Shown here: positions 45,248 to 64,000 of the stretch, piece by piece
Position numbering within the stretch: position 1 is the first letter of the stretch
How the letters are laid out: each line of letters opens with the position of its first letter
NCBI GenBank assembly: GCA_965243135.1
Contig: OZ251539.1
Location: 2,656,001 to 2,720,000 of the forward strand
Direction: 5' to 3'
Source of the DNA: Alphaproteobacteria bacterium
GTDB taxonomy: Bacteria; Pseudomonadota; Alphaproteobacteria; MPNO01; UBA830
DNA length: 64,000 nt
Program-made: the position numbers and the translations under genes
Notes under the pieces: generated by a model
Database searches by the model: none
What the model saw: the letters and a program-made list of their open reading frames with translations, nothing else
Told to the model about the DNA's origin: nothing

Positions 45248-45325
45248 GTTCGACTATCATTTCCCGCCGCGCCGGCTTTCCCGGGCGGGCGGGAAACGCG
45301 CTTGCAGGCTGCGGAGAAACGGAAA

Positions 45326-45487
45326 ATGCTGTTGCCGCCCGATATCGTCGAGGTCGAGACGACGGAAGTGTCCTGCGACGGCGGGGAACTCGGACATCCG
45401 AAAGTGTATCTGGCCCTGCAGGACGGCGAGGTCGAATGCCCGTACTGCGACCGCAAGTTCGTTCTCAAGCCGCGTTCCGCCCCCTGA
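45326..45487 (+). CDS. zf-CHCC zinc-finger protein
   Basis: VSCDGGELGHPKVYL..VECPYCDRKF. Confidence 0.88.
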   Translation: MLLPPDIVEVETTEVSCDGGELGHPKVYLALQDGEVECPYCDRKFVLKPRSAP

Positions 45488-45500
45488 CGGGCCGGCCGCC

Positions 45501-46037
45501 TCAGACCGGCGCCAGCACCATCACCATCTGACGGCCTTCCATTTTCGGAAACTGCTCGATCCTGCTCGTTCCGTCGAGGTCGCTTCGCACCCGGTCCAGA
45601 ACGGCGAGGCCGCGCTCCTGGTGCGCCATCTCCCGGCCTCGAAAGCGCATCGTCACCTTCACCTTGTCGCCGTCGTCGAGAAACTTCCTCATGAACCGCA
45701 TCTTGATTTCGTAGTCGTGATCGTCGATTCCGGGCCGAAGCTTGATTTCCTTGACCTCTATCGTCTTCTGCTTTTTGCGGGCTTCGTTCTTCTTCTTCTG
45801 CTCCTCGTATTTGAACTTTCCGTAATCCATGATCTTGCAGACCGGCGGAGCGGCTCCGCCGGCGACGACGACGAGGTCCATGCCTGCATGCGACGCGTAA
45901 TCGAGCGCTTCGCTTCGGGAGACAACGCCGATTTGCTGGCCGTCGGCGCCGATCAGACGCACCTCGGTCGCCTGGATCGTTTCGTTCACGGGCCGCTCGT
46001 CCCGCACGGGCGGCGCCATCATTGGAGGTCTTGCGAT
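45501..46037 (-). CDS. infC: Translation initiation factor IF-3 (probable ATC start)
   Basis: [22 protein letters not shown]; AAGGAG 7 nt before an in-frame ATC. Confidence 0.95.
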
Positions 46038-46092
46038 GGATTTTCTCCTTTGCTCGTTTGTCTTTCCGGTCCGGCTCGTTCCGCCGTCGGCG

Positions 46093-48009
46093 TCATGGTG
46101 AACGGCATCCGTCCGCAAGTCTAGCCACAGCCTCTTCGAGCGCAAGAACTTCCTGTTCCTTGCCGCCGAGGCTGCGCAGCGCGACCCTGCGGTTCTCCAC
46201 CTCGCGCCGGCCGACCACAAGAATGGCGGGCACCTTGGCGAGGCTGTGCTCGCGCACCTTGTAGTTGATCTTTTCGTTGCGAACGTCGAGTTCCGCCCGA
46301 ACGCCTGCGCCCTCCAGCGCGCTCCGGACTTCCTCGGCCCAGGCGTCGGCGTCCGACGTTATCGTCGCCACGACGGCCTGAACCGGCGCCAGCCACATCG
46401 GCAGGCGCCCGGCGTAGTGCTCGACCAGGATGCCGATGAAGCGTTCGAACGAGCCCAGAATCGCCCGGTGAAGCATGACCGGGCGGTGCTTCCTTCCGTC
46501 CTCGCCGACATAGGCGGCGTCCAGCCGCTCCGGCAGCACGAAATCGACCTGCAGCGTGCCGCACTGCCAGTCCCGCCCGATCGCGTCGCGCAGCACGAAT
46601 TCCAGCTTGGGGCCGTAGAACGCGCCCTCGCCCGGGTTCGGCTCGTAGTCGAGGCCGGTCGCCTCGACGGCCTCCACGAGCGCCGCTTCGGCGCGGCTCC
46701 AGACCGCGTCGTCGCCCGCCCGCACCGGCGGACGGTCGGCGAACTTCACCGCCACGTCGGAGAACCCGAAATCGGCGTAGACGCTCGTCAGCAGTTCGCA
46801 GAACGCCGCCGTTTCGGACGTGATCTGGTCCGCCGTGCAGAAGATGTGCGCGTCGTCCTGGGTGAAGGCCCGCACCCGCATCAACCCGTGCAGCGCCCCC
46901 GAAGGCTCGTAGCGATGGCACGAGCCGAACTCCGCCATGCGCAGCGGCAGGTCGCGGTAGCTGGTGATGCCCTGGCGGAATATCTGCACGTGGCCCGGAC
47001 AGTTCATCGGCTTCAGCGCCAGAATCCGGTCGTCGTCGGTTTCCGCGGTGAACATGTGCTCGCGGAACTTGTCCCAATGGCCGGACGCTTCCCAGAGCCC
47101 GCGGTCGATGAGCTGCGGCGTCTTCACCTCGACGTAGCCGGCTTTCTCGAGGCGCTTCCGGACGTAGGACTCGAGCGCGCGGTACAGCGTCCAGCCCTTG
47201 GGATGCCAGAAGACGCTGCCGACGGCCTCCTCCTGGAAATGATACAGCTCCATCTCGCGGCCCAGCCGCCGGTGGTCGCGCTTTTCCGCCTCCTCGAGCC
47301 GTTCGAGATGCGCGGCCAGTTCCTTTCCGTCCCGCCACGCGGTGCCGTAGACCCTCTGCAGCATTTCGTTGCGGGAGTCTCCGCGCCAATAAGCGCCCGC
47401 CACGCGCAGCAGCTTGAAGCCGCCGCCGACGTGGCCGGTGGACGGAAGGTGCGGCCCGCGGCACAGGTCGAACCACTCCCCCTGCCGGTAGATCGAAACG
47501 GTTTCGCCGGCCGGGAGGTCGCGGACGATCTGCGCCTTGTAGCTCTCGCCGAGGCCTTCGAAGAGGCGGATCGCCGCCTCCCGGTCCATCTCCTCGCGCG
47601 CGAACGCTTCGTCGCGGCCGACGATTTCGCGCATCCCGGCCTCGATCTTTTCGAGATCGTCGGTCGTGAACGGCGCGTCGCGCGCGAAATCGTAATAGAA
47701 ACCGTTTTCGATCGCCGGGCCGATGGTCACCTGCGTGCCGGGGTAGAGGCGTTGCACGGCTTCCGCCATGACGTGCGCCGCGTCGTGCCGGATCAGTTCC
47801 AGCGCTTCGTCGGACTTGCGGGTTACGATCTCGACGGCGGCGTCGCGATCGATCGGCCGGGCGAGATCGCGGATTTCTCCGTCGATCCTGACGGCGATCG
47901 CCGCCTTCGCCAGGCCGGGTCCGATATCGGCCGCGAGTTCCGCTCCGGTCACCGCGTGGCCGAAGCGGCGTACGCTGCCGTCCGGCAGGGTGATGTTCAC
48001 GCCGTCCAT
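46093..48009 (-). CDS. thrS: Threonyl-tRNA synthetase
   Basis: [42 protein letters not shown]. Confidence 0.97.
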
Positions 48010-48134
48010 GTTCCGTTCGCCAGATTCCAGAATTCGACTGCCGCCGCGCCGGGCGTTTAACGCAATCCCGCCGTCGCGGCAACCTCGGCGCCGCGGTCCG
48101 CCGCCGGTTCCGGCGGCGGCGAGCGGACGTTCCG

Positions 48135-49268
48135 TCATGCTTCGAGAAGTTCGCGGTAAACTGACATCGTCCGGTCGCACATCAGGGTTTTCGTGAAGTT
48201 CTTCTCTATATGGTCGCGCGTGCGCCGGGCGTTGGCGACCCTCTCTTCGGGCGTCATCGCCAGCGCCTCGCGCAGCGCGCGCGCGAGCGACGCCGGTTCG
48301 CGGGCCGGGACGAGCCAGCCGTTCTCGCCGTCGATCACCGTCTCCCGCAGGCCGCCGAGGTCGGTCACGATGACGGGACGGCCCATCGCCTGCGCCTCGA
48401 CGGAGACGCGGCCGAACGGTTCCGGTTCGACGGGAGCGAAAACCACGGCGTCGGCCAGCATGTAGGCGGCGGCCATGTCGCGGCAGGGCTCGGTCAGGCG
48501 CACGATCCCCTCCAGCCCGTTCCGCCGGATCTGCGCCCGGAGTTTCTTCCGGTAACGCGGGCTGCCGTGGTCCGCGCCGACGAGCAGTATGCGGTAGTTC
48601 GGATGATCGAGCTGGCGGGCGGCCTCGACGAGGACGCTGTATCCCTTGCGTCGGCTCGGCCGGCCGGGCGACATGATGACGTACGCGTCGTCCGGCAGGC
48701 ACCACTCCCGCGCCAGCTGGACGATGCGCTCCTGCGACACCGCGTGAGGATCGAAGATGTCGGTGTCGACGCCGCGAGGGATGGTCCGCAGCCGGTCCGC
48801 CGGAACGCCGTAGACTTCCGACACGTGGCGTCTCGTGAATTCGGATACGGCGATGACGAGATCGCCGCTCGCCATGACGCTGTTGTACGGCTTCTTCAAC
48901 GGGTAGCCGCCGCCGTAAAGCCCGTGGAAGGTGGTGACGAAGGAAACGCCCTGGCTCCGCGCGGCCGCGCGGGCGCTCCAGGCGGGCGCGCGGCTTCGGG
49001 CGTGCACGATATCGATTTCGTAGTGGCGGATGATCCTTTCGATGAGCGCCACGTTGCGCCGCATCGTCCAGGGGTTCTTCGAGCACAGCGGCGCCGTTAC
49101 GTGAATCCCGCCCGCCCGCTCGACGTCCTTGGTCATGGTGCCGCCGGCCGAGGCGACGACCGCTTTCCATCCCTCGGCCGCCAAGGCCGCGGTGATTTCG
49201 ACGGTGCCGCGTTCGACGCCGCCGAATTCCAGACGGGGCAGCACCTGCAGAACGGTGGGAACTTTCAC
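48135..49268 (-). CDS. Glycosyltransferase family 4
   Basis: [30 protein letters not shown]; GTG start after GAGGAG. Confidence 0.9.
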
Positions 49269-49296
49269 CGTTCGCTCCTCGATAGTATTACTGACG

Positions 49297-50103
49297 ATGG
49301 ACGCGTCCAACGAAGGCCGACGCCCGATGAACTCGGACAGCGAACCTCGACCGGGGATACTATCACGCAACGGCGCGACAATCGCGTACCGGCGGATCGA
49401 CGGCGCGACTCCCGGAGTCGTGTTTCTCGGCGGCTTCATGTCGGACATGCAGGGAACCAAGGCCCTGGCGCTGGAACGCCATTGCCGGGCGGCGGGCCGC
49501 GCCTTTCTGCGCTTCGACTACCAGGGGCACGGCGAGTCCTCGGGCGAGTTCGCCGACGGCACGATCGGAGTCTGGACGGACGACGCCCTGGCGGCGCTCG
49601 ACCGCTGCACCTCCGGCCGGCAAATACTGGTGGGATCGTCGATGGGCGGATGGATCATGCTGCTGGCGGCTCTCGCCAGGCCGCGCCGCGTGGCCGGGCT
49701 GGTGGGCGTGGCGGCCGCGCCGGATTTCACGGAGGACCTGTTGTGGGAACGCCTCGACGACGCGCGCCGCGAGGAGCTGGCCGTCGAGGGAATCTGCATG
49801 ATGCCGGGCGGCGGCGAGCCCGTCACCATGAAGCTTGTCGAGGACGGAAGGAAGCGCCTGCTTCTGCGGCGGCCGATACCGCTGCGCTGCCCGGTCCGCC
49901 TGCTTCACGGCATGCGGGACGAGGACGTGCCGTGGACGACGTCGATCCGCCTGGCGGAGCGGCTGCTTTCCGACGACGCGCGGGTCGTCCTCGTCAAGGA
50001 CGGCGATCACCGGCTTTCGCGCGACGGGGATATCGGTTGCCTGACGGGCGCGGTCGACGAACTCGCGGGCAGGCCCGCGATGGCCCGCAGCCCGGCGCGA
50101 TAG
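49297..50103 (+). CDS. Alpha/beta hydrolase (ABHD10-like)
   Basis: GFMSDMQGTKA, GSSMGG, KDGDHRLS. Confidence 0.88.
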   Translation: MDASNEGRRPMNSDSEPRPGILSRNGATIAYRRIDGATPGVVFLGGFMSDMQGTKALALERHCRAAGRAFLRFDYQGHGESSGEFADGTIGVWTDDALAALDRCTSGRQILVGSSMGGWIMLLAALARPRRVAGLVGVAAAPDFTEDLLWERLDDARREELAVEGICMMPGGGEPVTMKLVEDGRKRLLLRRPIPLRCPVRLLHGMRDEDVPWTTSIRLAERLLSDDARVVLVKDGDHRLSRDGDIGCLTGAVDELAGRPAMARSPAR

Positions 50104-50927
50104 TCGGGGAAGGCCAGCTCCACGCCCAGTTCTTCCTTCGTCCGGCCGTTGCGGACCCGTCGATTGTCCGCCCAGAAGGTTCGCGCCCGGGGCGACAACT
50201 CCGCGTCGGAGAACGCGATCAGGGGCGGCGGCTCCACGCCGAGAAGTTCGCAGGCGTAAGCGACGACCTCCGCCGGCTCCGCCGGTTCGTCGTCGCAGAC
50301 GTTGTAGATGCCGCCCGCCTCCGGCCTCGCGATGGACGCCTCGAGCACCGTCGCGATATCCTCCACGTGTATGCGGGAAAAATAGTGCCCCGGCTTGTCG
50401 ATGCGCCGCGCCGTGCCGTCGCGGATCCGGTCGAAGGCGGACCGGCCGGGTCCGTAGATCCCCGCGAGGCGAAAGACCTGCACGGCTACGCCCCGTTCCT
50501 CGCCCCATTGCAGCCAGGCGCGTTCCGCCGCGACCCGCCTCGCGCTGCGCTCGCTGCCGGGGCGGGTTTCCGAGGTTTCGTCGACCCATCCGCCGCCCCG
50601 GTCGCCGTAGACTCCCGTGGTCGACAGATATCCCGCCCATTCGACGGTCCGCGGCAAATCCGCGGCGTGTCGCCGCAGGACCGGGTCCCCTTCCGCGTCG
50701 GGCGGAACGGACGACAGCAGATGCGTGGTCCCGGCGAGCGCTTGCGGGCGATCCATGGGCGCCGTCCCGTCGAACAGCGCCGCTTCCATGCCGAGGGCGC
50801 CGAGCGCGGCGCGCCTGCGGGCGCTCCGGCAGGTGCCGGAGATCCGCCACTTGCGGGCGTTCAGCCGGCGGCTCAACGCCATGGCGGCATAGCCGAGGCC
50901 GAAGCAGAACAGCTTCCGGCGCCGCAC
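50007..50927 (-). CDS. NAD-dependent epimerase/dehydratase (atypical SDR)
   Basis: FGLGY, YLSTTGVYGD, RLAGIYGPGR, RIHVEDI; start approximate. Confidence 0.88.
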   Translation of the reverse strand: MRRRKLFCFGLGYAAMALSRRLNARKWRISGTCRSARRRAALGALGMEAALFDGTAPMDRPQALAGTTHLLSSVPPDAEGDPVLRRHAADLPRTVEWAGYLSTTGVYGDRGGGWVDETSETRPGSERSARRVAAERAWLQWGEERGVAVQVFRLAGIYGPGRSAFDRIRDGTARRIDKPGHYFSRIHVEDIATVLEASIARPEAGGIYNVCDDEPAEPAEVVAYACELLGVEPPPLIAFSDAELSPRARTFWADNRRVRNGRTKEELGVELAFPDYRAGLRAIAGLPASSSTAPVRQPISPSRESR

Positions 50928-50956
50928 GGCCGCGGTTCCCGTCGCGGCGGACCGCC

Positions 50957-53272
50957 TTACGGCCGGGCGGCGCGGATCGCCTGCCACACTCTGAGGGGCG
51001 TAAGCGGCATTTCCGCGTCGGTCACGCCGAGCCCCGAGAGCGCGTCGACGACGGCGTTGACCACCGCCGCGGTCGCGCCGACCGTGCCGGATTCTCCGCC
51101 GCCCTTCACGCCGAGCGGATTGGTCCGGCAAGCCGCCGCGAAATCCCGCGTCTCGATCATCGGCAGGTCGTCGGCCCGCGGCATGCAGTAGTCCATGAAC
51201 GAGCCGGCGAGGAGCTGGCCTTCGGAATCGTAGGTCACGTCCTCCATGAGGGCCTGGCCGACTCCCTGCGCCACTCCGCCGTGAACCTGGCCGGCGAGCA
51301 GCAGAGGGTTGATCACCTCGCCGGAATCGTTGACCGCCACGTGGCGAATCAGTTCGACGGCGCCGGTGTCGGGGTCGATTTCCACTTCCGCGAAGTGGGT
51401 TCCGTTGGGCCAGTTGGGACCGCTCTCCGGCGTCCAGGCACCTTCCGCCGAAAGTCCGACGCCGAGCTCCGCCGGCCAGCCCATGGGCATGAAGGTCTGG
51501 GCCGCGAGTTCGCAGATGTGAATCGACCGGTCGGTGCCGGCGACCTTGAGCGCGCCTTCTTCGAACTCGATGTCTTCGGCGGCCGCCTCCAGCAGGTGGG
51601 CGGCGATCTTCTTCGCTTTTTCGACGATCGCGTCGGCCGCGGCCCGCAAGGCGGAACCGCCGATCGACATGGAGCGGGATCCGTAGGTGCCGCGTCCGAA
51701 GGTCACCGCGTCGGTGTCGCCCTGGACCAGGCGGACGCGGTCGAACGGGACGCCCAGCCATTCATGGATCATTTGCGCGTAGGAGGTCCGGTGGCCCTGC
51801 CCGTGGCTGAAGGTGCCGGCCGCGACGGTCACGCCGCCGGTCTCGTCGAAGCGGATCTCCATCCGGTCGTTGAAGGGCGCCGCGAAATCGATGAAGGAGC
51901 AGACGCCGAGGCCGCGAAGCCGGCCCCGCGCGGCGGCCTCCTCCCTGCGGGCGGCGAAGCCGGCCGCGTCCGCGACGCCGGCGGCGTGGGCGGCGAGCGC
52001 CGGAAAATCGCCCGAGTCGATCACGGTCGGCACCGGCGTCGCGTACGGCATCTTCTCCGGGGAGACGTAATTGCGCCTGCGCAGCTCGATCGGATCCGCG
52101 CCGAGCTCGTCGGCCGCCATGTCGAGCAGGCGTTCCACGACGTAGATCGCTTCGGGCCGCCCTGCGCCCCGATAGGGGCCGGTCCAGGCCGTATGGCTGA
52201 ACACCGCGCGGATGTGGACGTGCATCGCCTGAAAATCGTAGACGTTGGGATAGACCATGGCGCCGATGCAGGCGGACACCGGCGCCGATGCGGACAGATA
52301 CGCGCCGAGGCCGTAATCGGCGCGCACCCGCAGCCCGAGAATCCGCCCGTCGCCGTCGAGCGCCAGTTCGCCCAGACAGTCGGCGTCGCGTCCGTGGGTG
52401 TCGCTGACCAGCGATTCGGACCGGTCGGCCGTCCACTTGACCGGCCGCCGCAGCCGTCTTGCCGCCCAGGCGCACAGGGCGTCTTCGGGGAAGACGTTGT
52501 TCTTCATGCCGAAGCCGCCTCCCACGTCGGGGCAGACGATGCGAAACGAACCCGCCGGGACGCCGAAGATTTCCGCGAAGACGGGGCGGTGCTGGTGGGG
52601 TCCCTGGCTGGACATCCAGATCGTGAAGCTGTCCTGTCCGGGATGATATTCGGCGAGGGTCGCCCGCGGTTCCATCGCGTTGGCGGAGATGCGGTTGTTG
52701 CGCAGGCGCGCCTTGACGACGTGCCGGGCGGAAGCGAACGCGGCTTCCGCGGCGTCGCGGTCGCCGAGCTCCATGTCGAACCACAGATTGCCGGGCGCGT
52801 CGTCCCACACGAGGGGCGCGCCTTCGACCGCAGCGTCGCGCGTGGAGCCTGCCGCGGGCAGAATTTCGTAGTCGACTTCGATCGCCTCCGCGGCGTTCCG
52901 CGCCTGCGCCAGAGTCTCGGCGACGACGAAGGCGACCGGATCGCCCACGCACCGCACCCGGTCCCGGGCGAGGATCGGATGCGCCGGCGTGTAGGTCGCG
53001 GGGCCGCCGAAAGCCATCGGCGGCACGTGGCAACCGATGTCGCGGAGACCGTCGGCCTCGACGTCCCGGCCCGCGAGAACCGCGAGCGCGCCGGGCATGC
53101 GCGCGGCGGCGTCGGTGTCGACTCCGTTCACGCGGGCATGGGAATGGGGCGATCGCAAGACGTAGCCCACGGCCTGCCGCGGCAGGTCGATGTCGTCGAC
53201 GTAGCGGCCGCCGCCTCTCAGAAGCCGCGGATCCTCCGTTCTCGGAACGGGCTGGCCGATGCCGAATTTCAT
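50957..53272 (-). CDS. Xanthine dehydrogenase-family molybdopterin large subunit (form II CoxL-like)
   Basis: REDPRLL-like N-terminus, VGGGFG, YRGAGRPE, GQGHRT, GQVHGG, KGGGE. Confidence 0.9.
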   Translation of the reverse strand: MKFGIGQPVPRTEDPRLLRGGGRYVDDIDLPRQAVGYVLRSPHSHARVNGVDTDAAARMPGALAVLAGRDVEADGLRDIGCHVPPMAFGGPATYTPAHPILARDRVRCVGDPVAFVVAETLAQARNAAEAIEVDYEILPAAGSTRDAAVEGAPLVWDDAPGNLWFDMELGDRDAAEAAFASARHVVKARLRNNRISANAMEPRATLAEYHPGQDSFTIWMSSQGPHQHRPVFAEIFGVPAGSFRIVCPDVGGGFGMKNNVFPEDALCAWAARRLRRPVKWTADRSESLVSDTHGRDADCLGELALDGDGRILGLRVRADYGLGAYLSASAPVSACIGAMVYPNVYDFQAMHVHIRAVFSHTAWTGPYRGAGRPEAIYVVERLLDMAADELGADPIELRRRNYVSPEKMPYATPVPTVIDSGDFPALAAHAAGVADAAGFAARREEAAARGRLRGLGVCSFIDFAAPFNDRMEIRFDETGGVTVAAGTFSHGQGHRTSYAQMIHEWLGVPFDRVRLVQGDTDAVTFGRGTYGSRSMSIGGSALRAAADAIVEKAKKIAAHLLEAAAEDIEFEEGALKVAGTDRSIHICELAAQTFMPMGWPAELGVGLSAEGAWTPESGPNWPNGTHFAEVEIDPDTGAVELIRHVAVNDSGEVINPLLLAGQVHGGVAQGVGQALMEDVTYDSEGQLLAGSFMDYCMPRADDLPMIETRDFAAACRTNPLGVKGGGESGTVGATAAVVNAVVDALSGLGVTDAEMPLTPLRVWQAIRAARP

Positions 53273-53428
53273 GGACGCCTCCCCGGCGGGCAGTATTGCG
53301 GTTTCCGGATATTCGTTCATATATGCGGGCGTGTCGAGGGCGAGGCCGGCCGCGGAAACCCGGCGGCGCGCGGGGCGCCGGCTCCGTTCGCTGGACTTCG
53401 CCCGCCGCCCCGCCATATTGCGCACGCC

Positions 53429-54265
53429 ATGGAACTGCCTTTCAGAAAGATGCACGGGCTCGGAAACGACTTCGTGGTGATCGACGCGCGTCCGGGGGAG
53501 CCGTGGGCCGGATTCGCCGTCGATTCCGCCTGGGCGGCCGCCGTCGCCGATCGCCATACCGGCGTCGGATGCGATCAGCTGGTCGCGATGGAAGAATCAC
53601 CCGGCGGGCGCGAAGACGTCTTCATGCGAATCTGGAACGCCGACGGCGGCGAGGCGGGCGCCTGCGGCAACGCGGCCCGCTGCGTCGGGGCGCTGCTGAT
53701 GGACGAGCGGGGCGCCGACGCCGTCCGCATCCGGACCGTCGCCGGCGCGCTGTCGGTCGCGCGCGCCGCCCGCGGCATGGTCGCGGTCGACATGGGCGCG
53801 CCGCGATTCTCGTGGGACCGGATACCGCTGAGCGGGCGGGCCGACACCCTGCACCTGAACCTCGGGCGCGGCCCGCTTTCCGATCCGGCGGCGGCCAGCA
53901 TGGGCAATCCGCACGCGACCTTCTTCGTCGACGAGGTCGAAGCGATTCCGCTCGCCGAGATCGGGCCGGCGCTCGAGATCGATCCTCTTTTTCCCGAAGG
54001 CGCCAACATCGGCGTCGCCCGCATCGACGACGCCGACCGGATGCGCCTGCGGGTCTGGGAGCGCGGCGCCGGCGTCACGCTCGCTTGCGGCACGGCGGCC
54101 TGCGCCGCGGTCGCGAACGCCTGGCGCCGCGGCCTCGCCGGACGCGGCGTGACCGTCGCCATGGACGGAGGATCGCTGCGGATCGACTGGCGGGAGGACG
54201 ACCGGATCCTCATGACGGGGCCGGCGGAGACGAGCTTCCACGGACTGCTCGAGACGGGATCCTGA
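53429..54265 (+). CDS. dapF: Diaminopimelate epimerase
   Basis: KMHGLGNDF, ACGNAARC, MGNPH, WERGAG.TLACGT. Confidence 0.96.
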   Translation: MELPFRKMHGLGNDFVVIDARPGEPWAGFAVDSAWAAAVADRHTGVGCDQLVAMEESPGGREDVFMRIWNADGGEAGACGNAARCVGALLMDERGADAVRIRTVAGALSVARAARGMVAVDMGAPRFSWDRIPLSGRADTLHLNLGRGPLSDPAAASMGNPHATFFVDEVEAIPLAEIGPALEIDPLFPEGANIGVARIDDADRMRLRVWERGAGVTLACGTAACAAVANAWRRGLAGRGVTVAMDGGSLRIDWREDDRILMTGPAETSFHGLLETGS

Positions 54266-54267
54266 TC

Positions 54268-55518
54268 GTGGACGCTCCCCGGATTCTCACTTTCGGATGC
54301 CGGCTGAACAGCTTCGAATCCGAGGTCATGCGCGAGCAGGCGGCGGCCGCCGGCGTGTCGAACGCGATTATCGTCAACGGCTGCGCGGTCACCGCCGAGG
54401 CCGAGCGGCAGGTGCGGCAGGCGATCCGCCGCGCCAGGCGGCGGCATCCGGAGGCGCGCATCGTCGTCACCGGTTGCGGCGCTCAGATCGCTCCCGAAAA
54501 ATACGCCGCGATGGAGGAGGTCGACCGGGTGGCGGGCAACGCCGAGAAGGTCGATGCCGATTTCTGGGCGGGGTTGGCGGAGGCGCCGCGCGTGTCGGTC
54601 GGCGACATCATGGCCGCGCGCGAGACGGCGTCCCACATGGTCGCCGGCTTCGAAGGCAGGACGCGCGCTTTCGTCGAGATACAGCAGGGGTGCGATCACC
54701 GGTGCACTTTCTGCGTCATACCGTTCGGGCGCGGCGCGAGCCGCTCGTCGGCGCCGGGCGCGATCGTCGAGCAGGCGCGCCGCCTCGTCGCCGGAGGGTG
54801 CAGGGAAATCGTGCTGACCGGGGTCGACATAACGGATTACGGAAAGGACCTGCCGGGGGCGCCGACGCTGGGCGGGCTGGTTCGCCGGCTGCTGAAGCTG
54901 GTTCCCGGCCTGCCCCGGCTCAGGCTGAGCTCGATCGACCCGGCGGAGGCCGACGAGGACCTGTACGGCGCGATCGCTTCCGAACCCAGGTTGATGCCGC
55001 ATCTTCACCTGAGCGCGCAGTCGGGCGACGACACGATCCTGAAGCGCATGAAGCGTCGGCATCTCCGCGCGGACATCGAAAACTTCGTCGCGCGCGCGCG
55101 GCGCCTCCGTCCCGACTCGGCGTTCGGCGCCGATCTCATCGCGGGCTTTCCCACCGAGACCGAGGAAGCCTTTCGCAACACGCTGTCCCTGGTGGAGGAT
55201 TGCGAACTGACATGGCTGCACGTCTTTCCCTATTCCGAGCGTTCCGGGACGCCGGCGGCTCGAATGCCTCAGGTGCCGGGCGAGGCGAGGAAGGCGCGGG
55301 CGGCTCTTCTGCGGGCGGCCGGGGCGCGGCAGGCGCGGCGGTTTCTCGACGCACGCGTCGGCGGAACGGCCGACGTGCTGGTCGAGCGCGAGGGAGAAGG
55401 ACGCTCGCCCCAGTTCGCCGTCGTGCGGCTCGAGGACGGGGCGGCGGCCGGCGTCATCGTTTCGGCGCGCATGCTGCGGCGCGACGGCGAAACCCTGTTG
55501 GCCCGGAAGGCGGCATGA
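54268..55518 (+). CDS. mtaB: tRNA t6A37 methylthiotransferase
   Basis: FGCRLN, CAVT, GCDHRCTFC (radical SAM); dapF-mtaB-ftsY synteny. Confidence 0.92.
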   Translation: MDAPRILTFGCRLNSFESEVMREQAAAAGVSNAIIVNGCAVTAEAERQVRQAIRRARRRHPEARIVVTGCGAQIAPEKYAAMEEVDRVAGNAEKVDADFWAGLAEAPRVSVGDIMAARETASHMVAGFEGRTRAFVEIQQGCDHRCTFCVIPFGRGASRSSAPGAIVEQARRLVAGGCREIVLTGVDITDYGKDLPGAPTLGGLVRRLLKLVPGLPRLRLSSIDPAEADEDLYGAIASEPRLMPHLHLSAQSGDDTILKRMKRRHLRADIENFVARARRLRPDSAFGADLIAGFPTETEEAFRNTLSLVEDCELTWLHVFPYSERSGTPAARMPQVPGEARKARAALLRAAGARQARRFLDARVGGTADVLVEREGEGRSPQFAVVRLEDGAAAGVIVSARMLRRDGETLLARKAA

Positions 55519-56450
55519 GCGACCGGCAGAAGGGAAGATGGTTCTCCCGTCTCCGCGACGGGTTGCGGCGCTCGTCGTCCCGGCTGTCCGACGGCATCGG
55601 CGCCATTTTCGCCGGGGGCAGGCTCGACGCCTCGACGCTGGAGGAACTGGAAGAGTTGTTGATCGCATCCGATCTCGGCGTCGCGACCGCGGCCAGGCTT
55701 TCGGCGTCGTTGGCGAAAACGCGCTTCGACGGGGAGGTTTCCGCGGACGAGGTCCGCGAGGCGATGGCGGACGAAATCGCCCGGATCCTCGAGCCGGTCG
55801 CCGTGCCGCTGGCGGCCGACCCCGCTCATCGGCCGCACGTCGTTCTCGTCGCGGGGGTGAACGGTTCGGGCAAGACGACCACCATCGGCAAGCTCGGGAA
55901 GCGTTTCGCGGAAGAGGGCAAGTCGGTCATGTTCGCGGCCGGCGACACGTTCCGGGCAGCCGCGATCGAACAGCTCCGGATCTGGGGCGAGCGGGCGGGC
56001 GCCCCGGTCGTCGCGAGAGATCCCGGGTCCGACGCGGCGAGTCTCGCCTTCGAGGCGGTGGACGCCGCCCGCGAGGCGGGGAGCGACGTATTGATCGTCG
56101 ATACCGCGGGCCGGCTGCAGAACCGCGACGACCTTATGCAGCAGTTGCGGAAGATGGTGCGCGTGATCCGGAAGCAGGACGCGACGGCGCCCCACGATTG
56201 TCTGCTGGTGCTCGACGCCACGGTCGGACAGAACGCGCATTCGCAGGTGGAGACCTTCCGCGCTATGTGCGATCTAACGGGTCTCGTGGTGACCAAGCTG
56301 GACGGTTCCGCACGGGGGGGCGCGCTCGTGGCTTTGGCGGAGAAGTTCGGCCTGCCCGTCCACGCCGTCGGGGTGGGCGAAGGGGAGGACGATCTCCGGC
56401 CGTTCGAGGCCCGGGCGTTCGCGCGCAGCCTGATGGGAATCGCGGACTGA
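55515..56450 (+). CDS. ftsY: Signal recognition particle receptor
   Basis: GVNGSGKTTT, DTFRAAA, DTAGR, TKLDG. Confidence 0.96.
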   Translation: MSDRQKGRWFSRLRDGLRRSSSRLSDGIGAIFAGGRLDASTLEELEELLIASDLGVATAARLSASLAKTRFDGEVSADEVREAMADEIARILEPVAVPLAADPAHRPHVVLVAGVNGSGKTTTIGKLGKRFAEEGKSVMFAAGDTFRAAAIEQLRIWGERAGAPVVARDPGSDAASLAFEAVDAAREAGSDVLIVDTAGRLQNRDDLMQQLRKMVRVIRKQDATAPHDCLLVLDATVGQNAHSQVETFRAMCDLTGLVVTKLDGSARGGALVALAEKFGLPVHAVGVGEGEDDLRPFEARAFARSLMGIAD

Positions 56451-56897
56451 CGGCGTTCGGGGAGCGGCAAGAATTCGCGCCCTCGCAGTCGAACGGTCGA
56501 CAAGTATTTGATGGGAGACGACCAAGGACGTATGAATGCGAAGCGCTCCGGGCATACGGTTCATGGACATGAGGGCCAAGCCGTGGTGTCTGGCGCGCAA
56601 GGGAGGCGGGCACCACGGTGCGGTCGGTCGGCGACAATGAGGCGGACAATGAGCGGTTCGTCATGCGGACAATGATCGCTTGCCTTAAGGCTAGCGTTAC
56701 CTATAGGAAGTTCGACCGGGATGCGAACAATAGAAGGTGCCGCTACGCGCCCGGCGAGAAGCTCGCTTTGACATACGAGCCGTATTCAGTACGCTTGCGC
56801 TGCGTGTTGGCAGCGCTTCGCCTTCCGTCGACCGAAGCGCGGGCGACCCGGTCAATCGTCACGCACGGCTTCGGCATTGTGCGAAGAGGGCTCTAAC

Positions 56898-57590
56898 ATG
56901 CGGATCGAGCCGGAGATCGATGGGATTAATATCGTTTTGGTCGGCGATTTCAATCCGACTGTGTTCACGCCGGCGTGGTTCGCGCTGCATGAATTCCTGC
57001 CGAAGCCCGCCGCGGACGGCGCAAAGGTGGATACCATCCATCCGCAGTTAACGGTTTTTTCCTTCGATTGGCTCCGCTTGCAGGTCGGAACGGATCGCTT
57101 TGTCGCTGAAACCGTGCAGGCACCCTATATTCGTGTATGCGACTTCGTCGGGCGCGTATTTACGGAACGCCCGGGTCAATCGTCGCTCAGGGCACTCGGA
57201 ATCAACCGCGGCGTTCATTTTCGGGTGCGGGATCGCGCCGATATGGATCGCATCGGCAGAACTCTGGCGCCGGTGAAACCTTGGGGCTCTTGGGGACGAG
57301 GTCTCGAACCCGGCGGCGGGCATGGCGGCATGGCATCGCTTACAATGTCGCAAGTCAAAATCGAAGGAAGGCCATCCGACGACCGGATCAACGTTAGAGT
57401 GGAACCGTCTGATCTAATTACTGGTCAAGGACGCGCCGGGATTCGCGTGCATGTCAACGATCATTATACAACGAGCGATACGGGTCCTGGAGCCAGTGAA
57501 CGTTTGTTGACAATTATCAAGAGCGGTTTCGATGGCTCCTTGGCGCAAAGCGGCGAAATCGTCGATCATGTCATGTCCTTGGCAGAATGA
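56898..57590 (+). CDS. Hypothetical protein (possibly TIGR04255-like)
   Basis: IVLVGDFNPTVFTPAWF, ALGIN, VNDH; beta-rich; family label tentative. Confidence 0.65.
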   Translation: MRIEPEIDGINIVLVGDFNPTVFTPAWFALHEFLPKPAADGAKVDTIHPQLTVFSFDWLRLQVGTDRFVAETVQAPYIRVCDFVGRVFTERPGQSSLRALGINRGVHFRVRDRADMDRIGRTLAPVKPWGSWGRGLEPGGGHGGMASLTMSQVKIEGRPSDDRINVRVEPSDLITGQGRAGIRVHVNDHYTTSDTGPGASERLLTIIKSGFDGSLAQSGEIVDHVMSLAE

Positions 57591-57605
57591 CAGGAAATCC
57601 GGTCG

Positions 57606-58205
57606 ATGCATCAGGCAGATCTCTCCACCGCAATGTCGCAAGCCAATAGGTCCGAGACGCGCGATAGTTTCGACTCGGAAATCGCGCATGAGGATATCGT
57701 TCGGCGTGCGGTGGCAAGGTTCGATCTCGAGTTCAGGCGCGGGATCGACGCTACCCAGGGAACCAGCACGCACCAGGCCAACGCGAGTTCCCGATCGCCT
57801 GTTACCGACCGTAGGCAGGTCGACCTTTCCCGAATCGTGGATTTGCCGAGATTGCCGGTTCGGCGAATGCCCGCGACGCGGTTTCATGCCCTGCAGGAGT
57901 GGGAGGGCTATGTCGTCGAGATCGGCGGCAAGGAATTCACGGCGCGGCTGACCGACATCACGGCCGGAGCGTCGTATGAGCAGGAAGAAGCGATTATCCC
58001 CCTTTCGGAGGTCTCGGACGGCGATGCCGAGAAGATGCGCGAGGGGAGCGTCTTCCGCTGGGTGATCGGTTACGAACGCTCTGCCTCCGGAACCAAGAAG
58101 CGCGTTTCCCAGATCGTGTTTCGCGACCTTCCGGCGATCACCGAGGCCGACCTGCGAGCCGGCAAAGCGTGGGCACGGGAGACGATGCGGTCGTTCGGGT
58201 TGTGA
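57606..58205 (+). CDS. Hypothetical protein with a beta-barrel-like C-terminal domain
   Basis: LQEWEGYVVEI..FTARL..GSVFRWVIGY; GTGA overlap with the next gene. Confidence 0.7.
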   Translation: MHQADLSTAMSQANRSETRDSFDSEIAHEDIVRRAVARFDLEFRRGIDATQGTSTHQANASSRSPVTDRRQVDLSRIVDLPRLPVRRMPATRFHALQEWEGYVVEIGGKEFTARLTDITAGASYEQEEAIIPLSEVSDGDAEKMREGSVFRWVIGYERSASGTKKRVSQIVFRDLPAITEADLRAGKAWARETMRSFGL

Positions 58206-59277
58206 CGGCGGCGGAAACGCTTCCGGGACATGACGAGATCGAACTTGCGCTTTTCGGCCCGGGGTACGGCGAGAGCGTCGTCATGCATATCGGCGACGGT
58301 GAATGGGTGGTCGTCGACTCCCGCATCGACAAGGACGGCAGACCGAACGCTCTGACCTATCTGGAGAACCTCGGCCTCGATCCGGCCGAAGTTGTCGTTC
58401 TGATCGTGGCGACTCACTGGCACGACGACCATATCCGCGGGATGGAGCGCGTGGTCGAGGCACAGGGCCCGCTTTTGTTGCTCGGCTGCGCTAGGTCTCC
58501 AGGAATTTCTTTCCATTGTCGGCGCTCTCGAAGACCGCAGCTTTTCCGGTTTCGGTTCCGGGGTTCGGGAACTTCACGGCGTCTTCACCCGACTTCGCGG
58601 AGCGGCGTCGAGGCCGACGTTCGCCCTCGCCAACCAACGCGTTCCCATGCGCAACGAGTGCGAGATCTGGTCCCTCTCGCCCGACAGCGGAGTCTTCCAG
58701 AATTTCCTGAAATCTATCGACGGTCTCGTGCCCGGCACCGGTCAAACCAAGGCTCGACTTCCCGGCCCGACGCCCAACGAGGCGGCGGTCGCGCTCTGGG
58801 TCGAGGTCCAAGACATCGCGGTATTGCTTGGGGCGGACTTGGAGAAGTCGGGCTGGACAGTCATTTTGCGAAGCAAGGAGCGTCCTGTCGGCAAGGCGTC
58901 GGCGTTCAAGGTCCCGCATCACGGATCCGCGAACGCCGACGAACGGGAGGTATGGACGCGAATGTTGGAGTCGGCTCCCTTCGCCGTGCTTGCGCCTTGG
59001 CGCAGAGGCGGCCATGCCCTTCCGGGCGAGAACGACGCGCAGCGCATTCTTTCGCGCACAGGGAATGCCTACGCGACCGCGAAAGACAGCCGACGTGCGC
59101 CCAGGCGCCGGGAAAGAATGGTCGAGCGGAGCATCCGGGAGTCCGGCCTCCAACTTCGAGAGCTGGCGATGTCCCCCGGCTGGCTTAGGTTACGGCGGCC
59201 GCTCCACCCAAAGGCGCAATGGTACAGTCGAGAAGTTTGGGACCGCGTGCCATCTCAAGGACTTCGCTGCGCCGTAG
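58202..59277 (+). pseudogene. MBL-fold (ComEC/Rec2-like) metallohydrolase, frameshifted
   Basis: FGPGYGES, ATHWHDDH, then NEAA, LLGADLE and KVPHHGS in another frame; shifts near 58460-58490, 58630 and 59225. Confidence 0.8.
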
Positions 59278-59655
59278 CCGACCGCGACGGCGGGCGTCCG
59301 ACAAAGCCCGCGCAAGTCGGCCCGATCAAGCGCGGCCGCCGATCGTCGAACCCGAGTCCGAAAGCGCGAGGAGACTTCATTTCCGGCGACCATCGCACTT
59401 CCGAAGGAGCGCGGCGGCCGTTGACGCCCTCGCGGGCGGGTGCTGTCCTCGCAGCTGTCTACGGACGCGGAGGTTTCCGTTCGCGCTCTGGCTTCATGGG
59501 GAGCCCGCGGGTAATCAACGGAGAAGCGAAGTCGCGAAACAAGACCGGCAAAATCATCGGCCGCGCCCACGATTGCGGCGATTGCAAACGGTTTGCGCTT
59601 TCGCCGATATAGGGCGGCTCGACGCCGCTGTCATCACGAACAACGGAAACGCGAA

Positions 59656-60699
59656 ATGACCGAATCCAGACGATCTTTTCTCGGCAGCGGCGTTGCCGCG
59701 GCGCTGGGAGCCTCCGCGTTGGCCGCGTCGGCGGCGCATGGCCGCCCGACGATTCGCTGGCGCCTTCAGACCTATGCGAATCCGGCCCTTGCGGAACATG
59801 TCGTCAAGCCCGCGGTGGACGCTTTCAACCGGGCCGCCAACGGCGAAATGGAGATCGAGCTCTTTTTCGCCGACCAGCTCGCGCCCGCAAGCGAGCTTTT
59901 CGAGGCGTTGCGGAACGGCACGGTCGACATCGCGCAATCCGACGACGATTCGATCGCCGCTCCGACCGACGTATCCGTGTTCGGAGGCTATTTTCCGCTT
60001 GCCCTGCGATACAGCCTCGACGTGCCCGTCCTGTTCAGCCGCTACGGGCTCGGCGAAATCTGGGATGCCGCCTACGCTGAAGTCGGCGGCGTCAAATGGC
60101 TGTCGGCGGGCGCGTGGGACCCGTGCCATTTCGCGACAAGGAAACCGATCCGGCGGCTGGCCGATCTGGAGGGCAAACGCATTTTCACCTTTCCGACCGC
60201 CGGACGCTTTCTCCGGAGATTCGGGGTAGTCCCCGTCACGCTGCCATGGGACGAAGTGGGATCGGCGATGCGGAACGGGGCGCTCGACGGCATCGCGTGG
60301 TCGGGAATCACGGAGAACTACACGGTCGGCTGGGCGGACGTGACCGAATACTTCCTCACGAACAACATCTCGGGGGCCTGGATCGGCCATTTTTTCGCGA
60401 ACGAGGATCGCTGGAACGCCCTTCCTGAGCACCTCAAAACGTTGTGGCGTCTGGCGATGGATTCGTCCCATTATTACCGTCAGCACTGGTACTGGGGCGG
60501 CGAGGCCGATCTCAGGACTCGGGGATCCAGAATGCAACTCACCTCCATTCCGGCCGAGGAATGGGCCACGGTCGAAGCCGAGGCCGACCGGTTCTGGGAC
60601 GAGATTGCGGCAGTCAGTCCGCGTGCGAGGCAAGTGGTCGAGATTTTCCGGCAATACAACGCCATCATGGCGAAAGCGGGCCAACCTTACCGCTGTTAG
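59656..60699 (+). CDS. TRAP solute-binding protein with Tat signal
   Basis: SRRSFL twin-arginine signal, WRLQTY, DLEGKRI, GALDG; no permeases adjacent. Confidence 0.88.
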   Translation: MTESRRSFLGSGVAAALGASALAASAAHGRPTIRWRLQTYANPALAEHVVKPAVDAFNRAANGEMEIELFFADQLAPASELFEALRNGTVDIAQSDDDSIAAPTDVSVFGGYFPLALRYSLDVPVLFSRYGLGEIWDAAYAEVGGVKWLSAGAWDPCHFATRKPIRRLADLEGKRIFTFPTAGRFLRRFGVVPVTLPWDEVGSAMRNGALDGIAWSGITENYTVGWADVTEYFLTNNISGAWIGHFFANEDRWNALPEHLKTLWRLAMDSSHYYRQHWYWGGEADLRTRGSRMQLTSIPAEEWATVEAEADRFWDEIAAVSPRARQVVEIFRQYNAIMAKAGQPYRC

Positions 60700-61145
60700 T
60701 TCGGCGGCTTTTTCCGCTCTTGTGCCGGCTCGCCGCGCTTCTGCCCGGCGCGCCGAGGAAAGGAGAAAACTGATCGTATGCGCCAACTCTTTGTCCGTCG
60801 CGCAGCCGACTTCGAGTCGGGGCTGCCCGCCTGCGAGGTTGGCGAGATCCTGCCGGCCCCTGCCGCCCGGCTGCGTTCTCCTTGCGGCGAATTGACTCGC
60901 CAGCCCCCCAACGGCGGAAACTGCCGGTCGTCTGCGTTGCGCTTCCGACCTCGTAGGGGGTATATGATCGCCAAGATTTTCGTAGACCTTTCCGGGAGCT
61001 TCGGTACTGTCTGGCTCGGGAAAATTTTCTCGCTTCGCGGCAGTTCGTCCATTGGCGATGACGCCTCCTCTGCGGCTACCCGCGAATGCTGTCCGTCTTG
61101 GCGGGAATTGACGTAATCTTGGCGCATGCGCTTGAGGAAGAGGCC

Positions 61146-64000
61146 ATGGAACCGCCTCCACGGGCAGTTTACGACGACCCTGCACGCCACTGGGACTTCT
61201 TGACCCGGCCCTCGGACGACGACTTCGAAGGTCAGCACTTCGACCGCAAGGAGGCTGGCCAAAGGACGAGCGAAGCTCGGAGACTCGAAAAGCAACTGAA
61301 ACGACTCCGGGATGGTATCGCCGAAACGGTTTCCGCCTTCGCCAACAGCAATGTCGAGGGCGGCCTCCTCGTGATCGGAATCGCTTCCAACGGCGCCGTC
61401 GAAGGCGTCAACCATCTGACGGAGCGGCAGAAGAACAGCCTCACCGACATTGGGAGCCTGCTCCACTTTCAGGCGGCCGAAGCGAAGCTTCACGTATGCA
61501 CGGACTCAGCTGGCCAAAGCAACGCCATCTGTCTGATCTATACCCCCTATGCGGACAGCGGCATCTGCGAAACGCCGGGATCTGCACCGAAAGCGTGGGA
61601 GCGACGCGGCCCCCAGAACGTGCCCGTTACGCTGGAGATGCGAGAGCGGCTCAGAGACAGGAAAAATCTTTCGAATTTCGAAAATGCGTTCTGTTGCCCC
61701 TATGACCCAACCGATCTCTCGAATGACGTTCTTGCGGAGTTCCGCAAGGTGTTTCTCCCGGAAGCGGTTAAGGACTTCTCGGACGAACGGCTGCTTTATG
61801 AGGCGGGGGCGCTGATCCGCAGGGATGGAGAATACTGGTTTACGAATGCCGGGCTTCTGTTCTTCGGATCGAATCCGCAACGGGTGCTTCCTGCATCGCA
61901 CGTCCGCTTGTTGCGATTCGGAGCGATCTCTGGGGATTTCGCTAAGCGCGGGCTGCCTACATTCGACCAGAAGTTTACGGGCCCGGTAACGAAGCAGATC
62001 CGCGAAGCGAGGACGTTCTTCAGAGAATCCGCGTTCTTCAAGCGATATCAAAAGCGTCGGGAGGCAGGCGGCTTCGCCGAGGAACCCGAGTTTCCGCCCA
62101 CCGTCATCGACGAGGCCATAGTGAACGCCGTGGCGCATCGGGACTATCGGACCGCCATACCGATCGAATGCGAAGCCTACGCGGATGCCTTCGTCGTCAA
62201 GAACCCAGGCCGGATGACGCAACGTGACGCCGATCTTCCATCCCGTTTCTCGTTGGCGGATGTCGTGCTCGACTCGATGCCTAGGAATCCCAAGATTTTG
62301 GAGTGGTTGAAGCTGATGCGGGATCCCCGCGGCGCAGCGTACGTACAAGCCATCAGCGAAGGCACGAAGCAGATGGTCACGGCCATGGAAGATCTCGGAT
62401 TGCCCGCTCCTTCATTCCGCCTGGCCTCGAACGAGACATTGATCAAGATCGAAAGCAAAGCTGAAGAACGCGAAGCCGCTATCCTGGCCGCGAACGAAGA
62501 CAAGCCAACGGAATTCTGCAATCTGTTTCTCCTGAGGTTTCGACAGCAAGGAAATCCGGTCGGGTACGATGCCTTCGGCTCGCGGTATGGAGAGATCGTC
62601 AAGACGCTGCGCGACGCTCTCAAGGGAAACGGATGGCATATCGACAGGGATGGATTCAGCAGGATATTGGCGCATAGAAAAGGCATGGAGCTTGAAGCGC
62701 CGGAAGACGTGAGATCCATTTTGCGTTTCTATCCAGCGTACGAATTCCAGATTCGAGAGTATCATCGGCGCTATTATTTGTGCATCGACTATAAATGCTT
62801 GGCTCTCAACGTAAGGAAGCTCTCCGTTGCGAGACAACGACTCGCCCGAACCGATCTGGAAGGCCGACGTTGCATCGCGGAGAAGCACGGATGGAGGGAA
62901 GGCCGTCTGTCTGAATTCGGCGACGAATTCGCGCAAGTCCGGTTCTTTGATACCGAAACGGAAGAGTCCGTTTCCGTCGATAAAGTTATTCCCAATGTCT
63001 CCAATGCGATGTTGGAAACCATGCTGAAGAAGGAAGGATCCTCGTTCGATTTCTCTGCTGCGCTCCGAAAGCACAGTTTGGTCACGAGGTCGAACGCCGC
63101 GAAGGAACGGGCGGAGAGAACGCTGACTATGGCGAATCATATTGCGGATACGGTGTTTCCATTGCGACATTGCGACCTCGACATAGACGTCGTTTCCGAT
63201 CCGGTTCGACTTTCTGAACGAAAAGGATCTTCGAAAGGCGAAATGTTCGTTCGACGCTTGCCGGAGCCGGAGGCGGAGTTTCGGCAACGCGAGCTGTCGC
63301 GAGATATCCGGACCGGAATCACGAAGTACGGTGCATATGACGATCAACCGCAGCGGATCGAGCTGATTCCCGTTTGCACGAATTCGATGCGAAAGGGAAT
63401 GGAAAAATTGATCGGTCGCTTGGTAGGGGGACGGCATAGATACCGTGGATCCGAACGCACTTTTGCGGCGGAGTTCTCGTATTCGACGATCGTCTCCGTG
63501 GATCGCGTCGAAAATATCCGGGGAGAAATCGAACGTCTGCTGGACCGGCGGCCAAAAGGCCACGCCGACGCACGGTCCCTCTTTCTCGTTTACGCTCCGG
63601 AAGAGGGCTATTCACGCGATGACCATACGGCGCCATATTTCGCCAACAAGAGACTGTTGCTGGAAAGAGGCGCGCCCTGTCAGATGGTTGATACGCCGAC
63701 ACTTGAGAACGCCGATTGGAAGGACCTGAATCTGGCCTTGAACATCTGCGCCAAATGCGGCGTTCGACCCTGGGTCTTGCCCGATAGAATCCCGGAAGCG
63801 GATTTTTTCGTGGGACTGTCCTATACGCAATCCGAAGACGGTCGGCGAATCATGGGTTTTTCCAACGTATTCAACAGCTACGGCAGGTGGGAGTTCTATC
63901 GCGGAAATGCCTCGTATTTTGATTTCGAGGATCGAAGCGTTCGGCTTGCCGGTTTGATTGAATCAACGTTAGAAAGACTCGAATCCCGACTGTCTTCGAC
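61146..64000 (+). CDS. Schlafen/AlbA_2 + HATPase_c_4-like + long prokaryotic Argonaute fusion (3'-truncated by window; not in ORF track)
   Basis: Stop-free frame of 951 codons from ATG 61146 after GAGGAAGAGG; EGQHFDRK and SAFANS..GGLLVIGI; EAIVNAVAHRDY, NPG, PRNP; MID Y831-K835-Q846-K870, NLALNICAKCG.PW; PIWI start DFFVGLSY. Confidence 0.88.
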   Translation, partial: MEPPPRAVYDDPARHWDFLTRPSDDDFEGQHFDRKEAGQRTSEARRLEKQLKRLRDGIAETVSAFANSNVEGGLLVIGIASNGAVEGVNHLTERQKNSLTDIGSLLHFQAAEAKLHVCTDSAGQSNAICLIYTPYADSGICETPGSAPKAWERRGPQNVPVTLEMRERLRDRKNLSNFENAFCCPYDPTDLSNDVLAEFRKVFLPEAVKDFSDERLLYEAGALIRRDGEYWFTNAGLLFFGSNPQRVLPASHVRLLRFGAISGDFAKRGLPTFDQKFTGPVTKQIREARTFFRESAFFKRYQKRREAGGFAEEPEFPPTVIDEAIVNAVAHRDYRTAIPIECEAYADAFVVKNPGRMTQRDADLPSRFSLADVVLDSMPRNPKILEWLKLMRDPRGAAYVQAISEGTKQMVTAMEDLGLPAPSFRLASNETLIKIESKAEEREAAILAANEDKPTEFCNLFLLRFRQQGNPVGYDAFGSRYGEIVKTLRDALKGNGWHIDRDGFSRILAHRKGMELEAPEDVRSILRFYPAYEFQIREYHRRYYLCIDYKCLALNVRKLSVARQRLARTDLEGRRCIAEKHGWREGRLSEFGDEFAQVRFFDTETEESVSVDKVIPNVSNAMLETMLKKEGSSFDFSAALRKHSLVTRSNAAKERAERTLTMANHIADTVFPLRHCDLDIDVVSDPVRLSERKGSSKGEMFVRRLPEPEAEFRQRELSRDIRTGITKYGAYDDQPQRIELIPVCTNSMRKGMEKLIGRLVGGRHRYRGSERTFAAEFSYSTIVSVDRVENIRGEIERLLDRRPKGHADARSLFLVYAPEEGYSRDDHTAPYFANKRLLLERGAPCQMVDTPTLENADWKDLNLALNICAKCGVRPWVLPDRIPEADFFVGLSYTQSEDGRRIMGFSNVFNSYGRWEFYRGNASYFDFEDRSVRLAGLIESTLERLESRLSS

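Follow-up and report, generated by a model that had tools for sequence, protein, structure and literature searches.

The stretch analysed here (the window) comprises 64,000 nucleotides (nt) of contig OZ251539.1 of an Alphaproteobacteria bacterium (G000:C1:2656001-2720000), and at its 3' end lies a gene for a prokaryotic Argonaute (pAgo) fused to a Schlafen (SLFN) nuclease domain, an SLFN-pAgo. The open reading frame (ORF) occupies window positions 61086..>64000 on the plus strand, as do all features of the gene described below, and continues past the window end in the same genome, with its stop codon 508 bases beyond (L002:5509). Counted from the first ATG, at 61086, the frame (L002:2087-5509) encodes 1140 amino acids (aa). 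The second ATG, at 61146, is the likelier start, because a Shine-Dalgarno-like run, GAGGAAGAGG (61134..61143, read directly), lies 3-12 nt 5' of it, the database version of the protein (P0002, 100% identity) has 1120 aa, and homologues begin there; no such run was found ahead of the upstream in-frame ATG at 61086. With this start, the gene has 1120 codons according to the ORF continuation, P0002 and PADLOC, and codons 1-951 lie in the window at 61146..64000.

From the N- to the C-terminus, the protein contains a Schlafen AlbA_2 nuclease, a GHKL ATPase, a compact Argonaute N-lobe, a MID domain with an intact 5'-end pocket, and a PIWI domain without the catalytic Asp. The PADLOC model PDLC02394 ('pAgo') was matched end to end (2-1121 of 1121 positions, 1584.5 bits); therefore, this exact architecture had already been modelled in a defence database in 2023. 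A protein of the same kind, RzAgo of Runella zeae, is described in the bioRxiv preprint of Kuzmenko et al. of 30 May 2026 (10.64898/2026.05.29.728809; hereafter the preprint). We assessed residue conservation over 63 sequences, namely the window protein, RzAgo, 60 further intact loci and one internally deleted copy (L007).

The nuclease domain (residues 28-160, 61227..61625) matched Pfam PF04326 (SLFN_AlbA_2) with 35 bits against a cut-off of 25.3 (E 1.9e-8 to 2.4e-8), and the family profile weakly reached human SLFN12 (7lrc, E 0.017, profile 29-164). The nuclease motif E28-x4-D33-x-K35 (61227..61250), in the sequence FEGQHFDRK, is kept almost throughout, with E28 and K35 each in 62 of the 63 sequences and an Asp or Glu at position 33 in all of them. 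The SAFAN sequence at S63-N67 (61332..61346), read in the protein sequence and named the 'Schlafen box' in the preprint, is also well conserved (S 61, A 53 with G in 9, F 62, A 56, N 60). The GHKL-type ATPase region follows at approximately residues 195-450 (61728..62495, boundaries approximate) and was located by PF13749, by the structure 3lmm, which the profile matched with E 1.2e-4, and by an alignment along the ATPase domain of RzAgo. The N-box of the ATPase, E323-x3-N327 (62112..62126), aligns with E314 and N318 of RzAgo, and its E and N are kept in all 62 sequences with a residue at those positions. According to the preprint, E314 and N318 coordinate Mg2+ and the gamma-phosphate, and the E314A mutant shows neither hydrolysis nor defence.

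The AlphaFold2 (AF2) model of the whole protein has a predicted local distance difference test score (pLDDT) of 76.8. Residues 454-1120 of the model match the fold of RsAgo of Rhodobacter sphaeroides (5awh, 6d8a) with a Z of 22.9 and a root-mean-square deviation of 4.3 over 613 aligned residues; many other Argonautes match too, and for the short pAgo and AfAgo structures the match begins at model residue ~699-707, with a Z of ~21-22. Among solved structures, the best relatives by the family profile are EcAgo (23wq) and then the long-B RsAgo; RsAgo is also the best solved relative in a single-sequence phmmer search (E 1e-10), and an RsAgo-type model was the sole NCBIfam match (E 9.4e-9, far below its cut-off). 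Kuzmenko et al. place the SLFN-pAgo family in the long-B clade.

The N-terminal lobe of the Argonaute core (residues 452-722, 62499..63311), delimited by the AF2 model and fold matches, is compact and contains L1, a small PAZ-like barrel and L2. When modelled alone (271 residues), it reached a pLDDT of 91.7 and matched 8xih (Z 12.0), MpAgo (Z 11.9), RsAgo 20-323 (Z 11.7, 232 aligned) and AfAgo-N (Z 11.7), as well as APAZ proteins at a Z of 8.8-9.5. A short pAgo, which consists of MID-PIWI only and receives its N-lobe from a separate APAZ protein, was ruled out by the presence of this lobe in the same chain. Residues ~106-172 of the lobe model match Tudor/KOW barrels with a Z of ~7, so that in the predicted structure a barrel of ~60 residues appears to occupy the place of the PAZ. 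An earlier note on this DNA, made from the sequence alone, had suggested a possibly reduced PAZ. The compactness of the lobe and the small barrel at the PAZ place agree with that suggestion, but the preprint reports that SLFN-pAgos keep L1 and PAZ and that it is the canonical N domain that is missing; the alignment of 232 of the 271 lobe residues to RsAgo 20-323 is at the level of ranges and fits N-domain loss and PAZ reduction alike.

The MID domain (approximately residues 723-880, 63312..63785) was delimited by the short pAgo and AfAgo structures and HMMER alignments. Its predicted 5'-end binding pocket consists of Y831, K835, Q846 and K870 (63636..63755), which in HMMER pairwise alignments face the same Y, K, Q and K in RsAgo (5awh/6d8a, E 1e-10 to 2e-11). 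We take these RsAgo residues to be its 5'-phosphate pocket. In the MAFFT alignment the four face Y828, K832, Q843 and K867 of RzAgo, and they are invariant in 35/35 close homologues and in the 63/63 sequences from species genomes. The preprint reports that mutation of two MID pocket residues ('RzAgo-YK') abolishes guide binding; the identification of these two as Y828 and K832 is our own assignment.

The inactive PIWI domain starts in the window (residues 881-951, 63786..64000) and runs to residue 1120 beyond it. At the first position of the catalytic tetrad, FFVGLS892Y aligns with 'fvgiDis' of the Aquifex aeolicus Ago (AaAgo, 1yvu) and 'fvglDvg' of CpAgo (9jh8), so that S892 (codon 63819..63821) sits on the Asp of these two slicers; RzAgo has A there, and the other 62 of the 63 sequences have S. 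S960 takes the third position against 'hrDg' of AaAgo (the alignment with CpAgo points to A961 instead), and R1091, with D1092 adjoining, faces 'ysDk'/'yaDk' at the fourth. The second, glutamate-finger position falls in a poorly aligned loop, YFDFEDRS, which contains acidic residues. Positions 1, 3 and 4 are thus non-acidic, and the PIWI domain is therefore predicted to be incapable of canonical slicing; a slicing Argonaute of the long-A type with a DEDX tetrad was ruled out on the same three positions. A slicer with a non-canonical active site, cutting via D926/E928/D929 or via D1092, would draw on the acidic residues near the second and fourth positions (YFDFEDRS and YARDIAY) and on the D1092 position, which is D in 49/63 and N in 11/63 sequences. 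However, positions 1 and 3, metal-binding in all known slicers, are S and S/A in the window protein and nearly all of its relatives, and all long-B pAgos are described as inactive in the literature we draw on (PMC6299218; 10.64898/2026.05.29.728809), so we regard such a slicer as exceedingly improbable.

These results bear out most of what the earlier note had read at this end of the window. The YKQK motif in the MID domain and the Ser at the first catalytic Asp are both present, the positions that it gave are exact with the start at 61146 (Y831 is encoded from 63636 and S892 by 63819-63821), and beyond 64000 further tetrad positions are lost as well. Its description of a long-B-like, non-slicing sensor agrees with the non-acidic tetrad positions, with RsAgo as the nearest fold and with the clade given in the preprint.

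Fusions of Schlafen domains with long-B pAgos were listed by Ryazansky et al. in 2018 (PMC6299218), where they were seen as DNA-binding fusions. In the preprint, 78 proteins with 1071-1187 aa make up the SLFN-pAgos, a monophyletic group within long-B. They combine an SLFN domain, a GHKL ATPase and a pAgo core without the N domain or the tetrad and, according to its description, have no conserved partner gene. The window protein has the PF04326 match, the motif with the SAFAN box, the E and N of the GHKL domain, the tetrad loss and a length within that range; its architecture is real but already described, and the protein is a further uncharacterised member. A search of the whole Runella zeae record identified the RzAgo gene (E 9.9e-244, residues 3-1120 of the window protein, 40% identity). 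RzAgo has 1111 aa, against 1120 aa here, and aligns collinearly with the window protein, with 40.6% of 1090 aligned positions identical (MAFFT). D32, K34, E314 and N318 of RzAgo correspond to the identical residues D33, K35, E323 and N327, and Y828, K832, Q843, K867 and Y1086 correspond to Y831, K835, Q846, K870 and Y1095, also identical.

In the account given by the preprint, RzAgo carries 18-23 nt RNA guides with a 5'-A in its host and targets single-stranded DNA. The earlier note had suggested that the window protein needs another source of guides, which may be so; the word 'biogenesis' is absent from the preprint text. Guide loading leads to inhibitory filaments, which target DNA takes apart, and ATP drives the formation of tetramers. 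Cleavage of tRNA by the SLFN domain follows the binding of guide and target DNA and is abolished by D32A. RzAgo aborts infection; the D32A and E314A mutants no longer protect against phage, and D72A increases the protection.

By analogy with RzAgo, the product of the gene is very probably an abortive-infection system of the SLFN-pAgo family, one that works alone and as a single polypeptide. Judging from RzAgo, the Argonaute core would load small 5'-phosphorylated RNAs, and the guides probably start with A because Y831 and Y1095 match Y828 and Y1086. The guide-loaded protein would be held inactive, as RzAgo is in its filaments, and pairing of the guide with complementary invader DNA would release this state. 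ATP binding to the GHKL domain would assemble tetramers and thereby join the Schlafen domains, whose E28/D33 sites would cut tRNA and so halt protein synthesis in the infected cell. The proposal of the earlier note that the fused N-terminal module is the output is shown by experiment in RzAgo; the matching residues are present in the window protein, which may well use its module in the same way.

Several observations weigh against this reading. The window protein shares only ~40% identity with RzAgo, the sole characterised member, and the source on the RzAgo mechanism is a preprint. HATPase_c_4 (PF13749) matched residues 340-431 with 25.4-25.8 bits at a cut-off of 26. Pfam Piwi (PF02171) gave no match at E<=10 with the whole protein or with its C-terminal 540 aa, and for this reason the identity of the PIWI domain is taken from the PADLOC, PDB and fold matches. 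RzAgo is itself an outlier at two motif positions, with H27 where the window protein and 61 others have E28, and A where the window protein has S892. In addition, D72 of RzAgo, the loss of which makes it hyperactive, falls in a one-residue gap of the window protein beside A80/S81 (local sequence GI-ASNGAVEG), and the basic pair K46/K47 has R55/D56 opposite it, next to an indel of 8 residues; therefore, the regulation of the nuclease may differ in detail from that of RzAgo. Finally, the neighbourhood consists of metabolic genes and is not a defence island, and six of the eight neighbour ORFs scanned with PADLOC gave no match at E<=0.01.

The metabolic setting would also suit a guide-directed DNA binder or regulator, in which the AlbA_2/HATPase_c_4 module binds or regulates and the target is silenced or marked while the cell is not killed. 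The PF04326 domain fused to long-B pAgos was listed as a 'DNA-binding domain' by Ryazansky et al. (PMC6299218), and homologues carry source names such as 'predicted HTH transcriptional regulator' (HTH, helix-turn-helix) and 'putative DNA binding domain-containing protein'. Nonetheless, E-x4-D-x-K and SAFAN are kept in nearly all 63 family sequences, and in RzAgo both tRNA cleavage and defence need the aligned Asp, as reported in the preprint; we therefore hold a mere binder to be very unlikely and retain the abortive-infection system as the preferred reading. A variant of the latter is that the window protein and its close relatives form a differently regulated SLFN-pAgo sub-type, in which the nuclease is intrinsically 'hotter' and leans more on the guide-loaded inhibited state. 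This is argued from the full E-x4-D-x-K, where RzAgo has H, and from the lack of an acidic residue at D72, and we consider it unlikely; if true, a 'hotter' nuclease might explain the many split, truncated or relic copies in other genomes.

The neighbours of the gene are FtsY, two ORFs without a Pfam or PADLOC match, a split metallo-beta-lactamase-fold gene and a DctP solute-binding protein. The opposite strand downstream of the gene carries a haem-oxygenase-like gene, hydrolases, luciferase-like oxygenases, a sulfatase and an acyl-CoA dehydrogenase. When 26 kb around the gene were compared by tblastx with 80 related loci, the matches outside the gene were limited to short fragments of low identity, and tblastn of six neighbour ORFs against the same loci gave nothing at E<=1e-3. 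No neighbour is thus common to the 80 loci, which agrees with the preprint in that the family has no conserved partner. The two ORFs without matches (56877-57590 and 57606-58205, plus strand) have no homologue close to the SLFN-pAgo gene in any of the 80 other loci and lie in a low-GC segment at 56500-58300 (0.58-0.61 vs ~0.70 upstream). The metallo-beta-lactamase-fold gene (58169-59612, plus strand) appears split over two overlapping frames, 58169-59188, which has a Lactamase_B match at its N-terminus, and 58647-59612, which continues the gene. The two halves are the other two of the eight ORFs scanned with PADLOC and weakly match the front (3-80) and back (212-287) of the LmuA model PDLC03854; the gene is either a frameshifted pseudogene or the product of an assembly indel.

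The SLFN-pAgo gene was probably gained by horizontal transfer, because its GC content is 0.53-0.59 against 0.63-0.72 around it, a search of 40 related genomes (4 from the genus, 20 from the family and 16 from the order of the host) gave no copy at E<=1e-20, the most similar genes (72-81% identity) occur in metagenome-assembled genomes (MAGs) labelled Gammaproteobacteria and Longimicrobiales, and no neighbours are shared. We found no tRNA gene in window positions 45000-64000 or in the 17-kb locus L002, and no integrase or transposase family among 27 neighbour ORFs scanned. The downstream haem-oxygenase-like gene is present in three of four same-genus genomes, and the upstream DctP gene was not found at E<=1e-30 in these four. 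In two congeners compared at the DNA level only the haem-oxygenase-like gene aligns, so that the boundaries of the insertion are not set by this comparison.

Elsewhere in the same genome, outside the window, a 72-bp relic (G000:C1:4874278-4874344, minus strand, or L083:5280-5345) matches the final 72 bases of the gene at 79% identity and reads ...TAAFLRQ-PFELHPSLETTPWLI in translation. No ORF precedes it, and it appears to be what is left of a second SLFN-pAgo copy that has been lost. Pfam SLFN_AlbA_2 is matched above its cut-off at 13 further places, in open frames of 168-772 aa, and the genome is therefore rich in Schlafen or 'Schlatpase'-type proteins.

Among 185,579 species genomes, 140 matching stretches were confirmed, and the best 120 of 665 protein-cluster matches (52-100% identity) are full-length save a handful of 956-1085 aa. 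We examined 81 loci, with frames picked by BLAST guidance; picking by longest ORF was discarded, as it gave wrong frames in several high-GC loci. One frame spans the protein in 61 of the 81. The remainder comprise four cyanobacterial loci that match only from residue 164, three cut by contig ends, one N-terminally short (L040, no SLFN match), one internally deleted (L007, with residues 1-40 joined to 688-1120) and 11 that are split over two or three frames or interrupted, some of which may be assembly errors. In L017 and L021, ~1.6-1.9 kb lie between the gene halves, and L040, where the SLFN part is missing, is a second copy in a genome that also holds L058. The cyanobacterial proteins (L043, L044, L049 and L053, from Nostoc, Stigonema, Scytonematopsis and related MAGs) have ~1190 aa, of which the first ~240 do not align to the window protein. 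The two that were scanned, L044 and L049, have SLFN_AlbA_2, HATPase_c_4 and Piwi matches; an unaligned N-terminus that is still SLFN_AlbA_2 fits the two SLFN clades described in the preprint and is consistent with Schlafen domains swapped between clades.

The state of these copies bears on the possibility that the window gene is a decaying or silenced passenger, its ORF intact by chance after recent transfer and its function or expression lost. The family is often broken (the 11 split or interrupted loci, L040 and L007), the relic lies in the same genome, and the adjacent metallo-beta-lactamase-fold gene is itself split. On the other hand, the window gene has 1120 uninterrupted codons, a Shine-Dalgarno-like site and every invariant family residue that we checked, and some split copies elsewhere may be indel errors of assembly; we give little credence to a dead passenger and keep to a working abortive-infection system. 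The SLFN-pAgo family is larger than the 78 proteins of the preprint, and its characterised member is atypical at two motif positions, which is useful to know when choosing further members to study. With the window protein, a defence family for which a mechanism was published in 2026 gains one intact member, from a high-GC genome; alone, this protein matters little.

Compared with other known systems, the window protein is closest to RzAgo. Both have the YKQK pocket, the 5'-base contacts Y831/Y1095 (window-protein numbering), the SAFAN box and the GHKL E-x3-N, and both lack the catalytic Asp residues of PIWI and a conserved partner gene. RzAgo comes from Bacteroidota, whereas the window protein comes from a high-GC genome and has its nearest relatives in the Gammaproteobacteria and Longimicrobiales MAGs. 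RsAgo shares the YKQK residues and the inactive PIWI and, according to the titles of its PDB entries, uses RNA guides and DNA targets. In contrast to the window protein, RsAgo has 777 aa without a Schlafen domain, a GHKL module or a fused effector, and its N-terminal lobe is larger (RsAgo 20-323 vs 271 residues).

In the short pAgo systems SPARTA (TIR-APAZ), SPARSA (SIR2-APAZ), SPARDA (DREN-APAZ) and SPARHA (HNH-APAZ), the MID-PIWI folds match that of the window protein at a Z of ~21. The logic of these systems appears to be shared: a catalytically inactive MID-PIWI sensor, RNA as the guide, DNA as the target, oligomerisation, and abortive infection by a collateral effector. Their effector and APAZ, however, mostly reside in a separate polypeptide, with NADase or DNase activity. 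In SPARDA, filaments assemble when the target is bound and switch the nuclease on (review PMC13434031), while the filaments of RzAgo precede target binding and inhibit. The bacterial Schlafen defence proteins and mammalian SLFN11/12/13 have, as does the window protein, an AlbA_2 fold with acidic active-site residues and a SAFAN box, and they are tRNases activated by oligomerisation. Other Schlafen proteins use different sensors, such as an Ig-like domain or a superfamily 1 (SF1) helicase/ATPase. The mammalian SLFN domain has two lobes in one chain, whereas the SLFN-pAgos have the catalytic lobe only.

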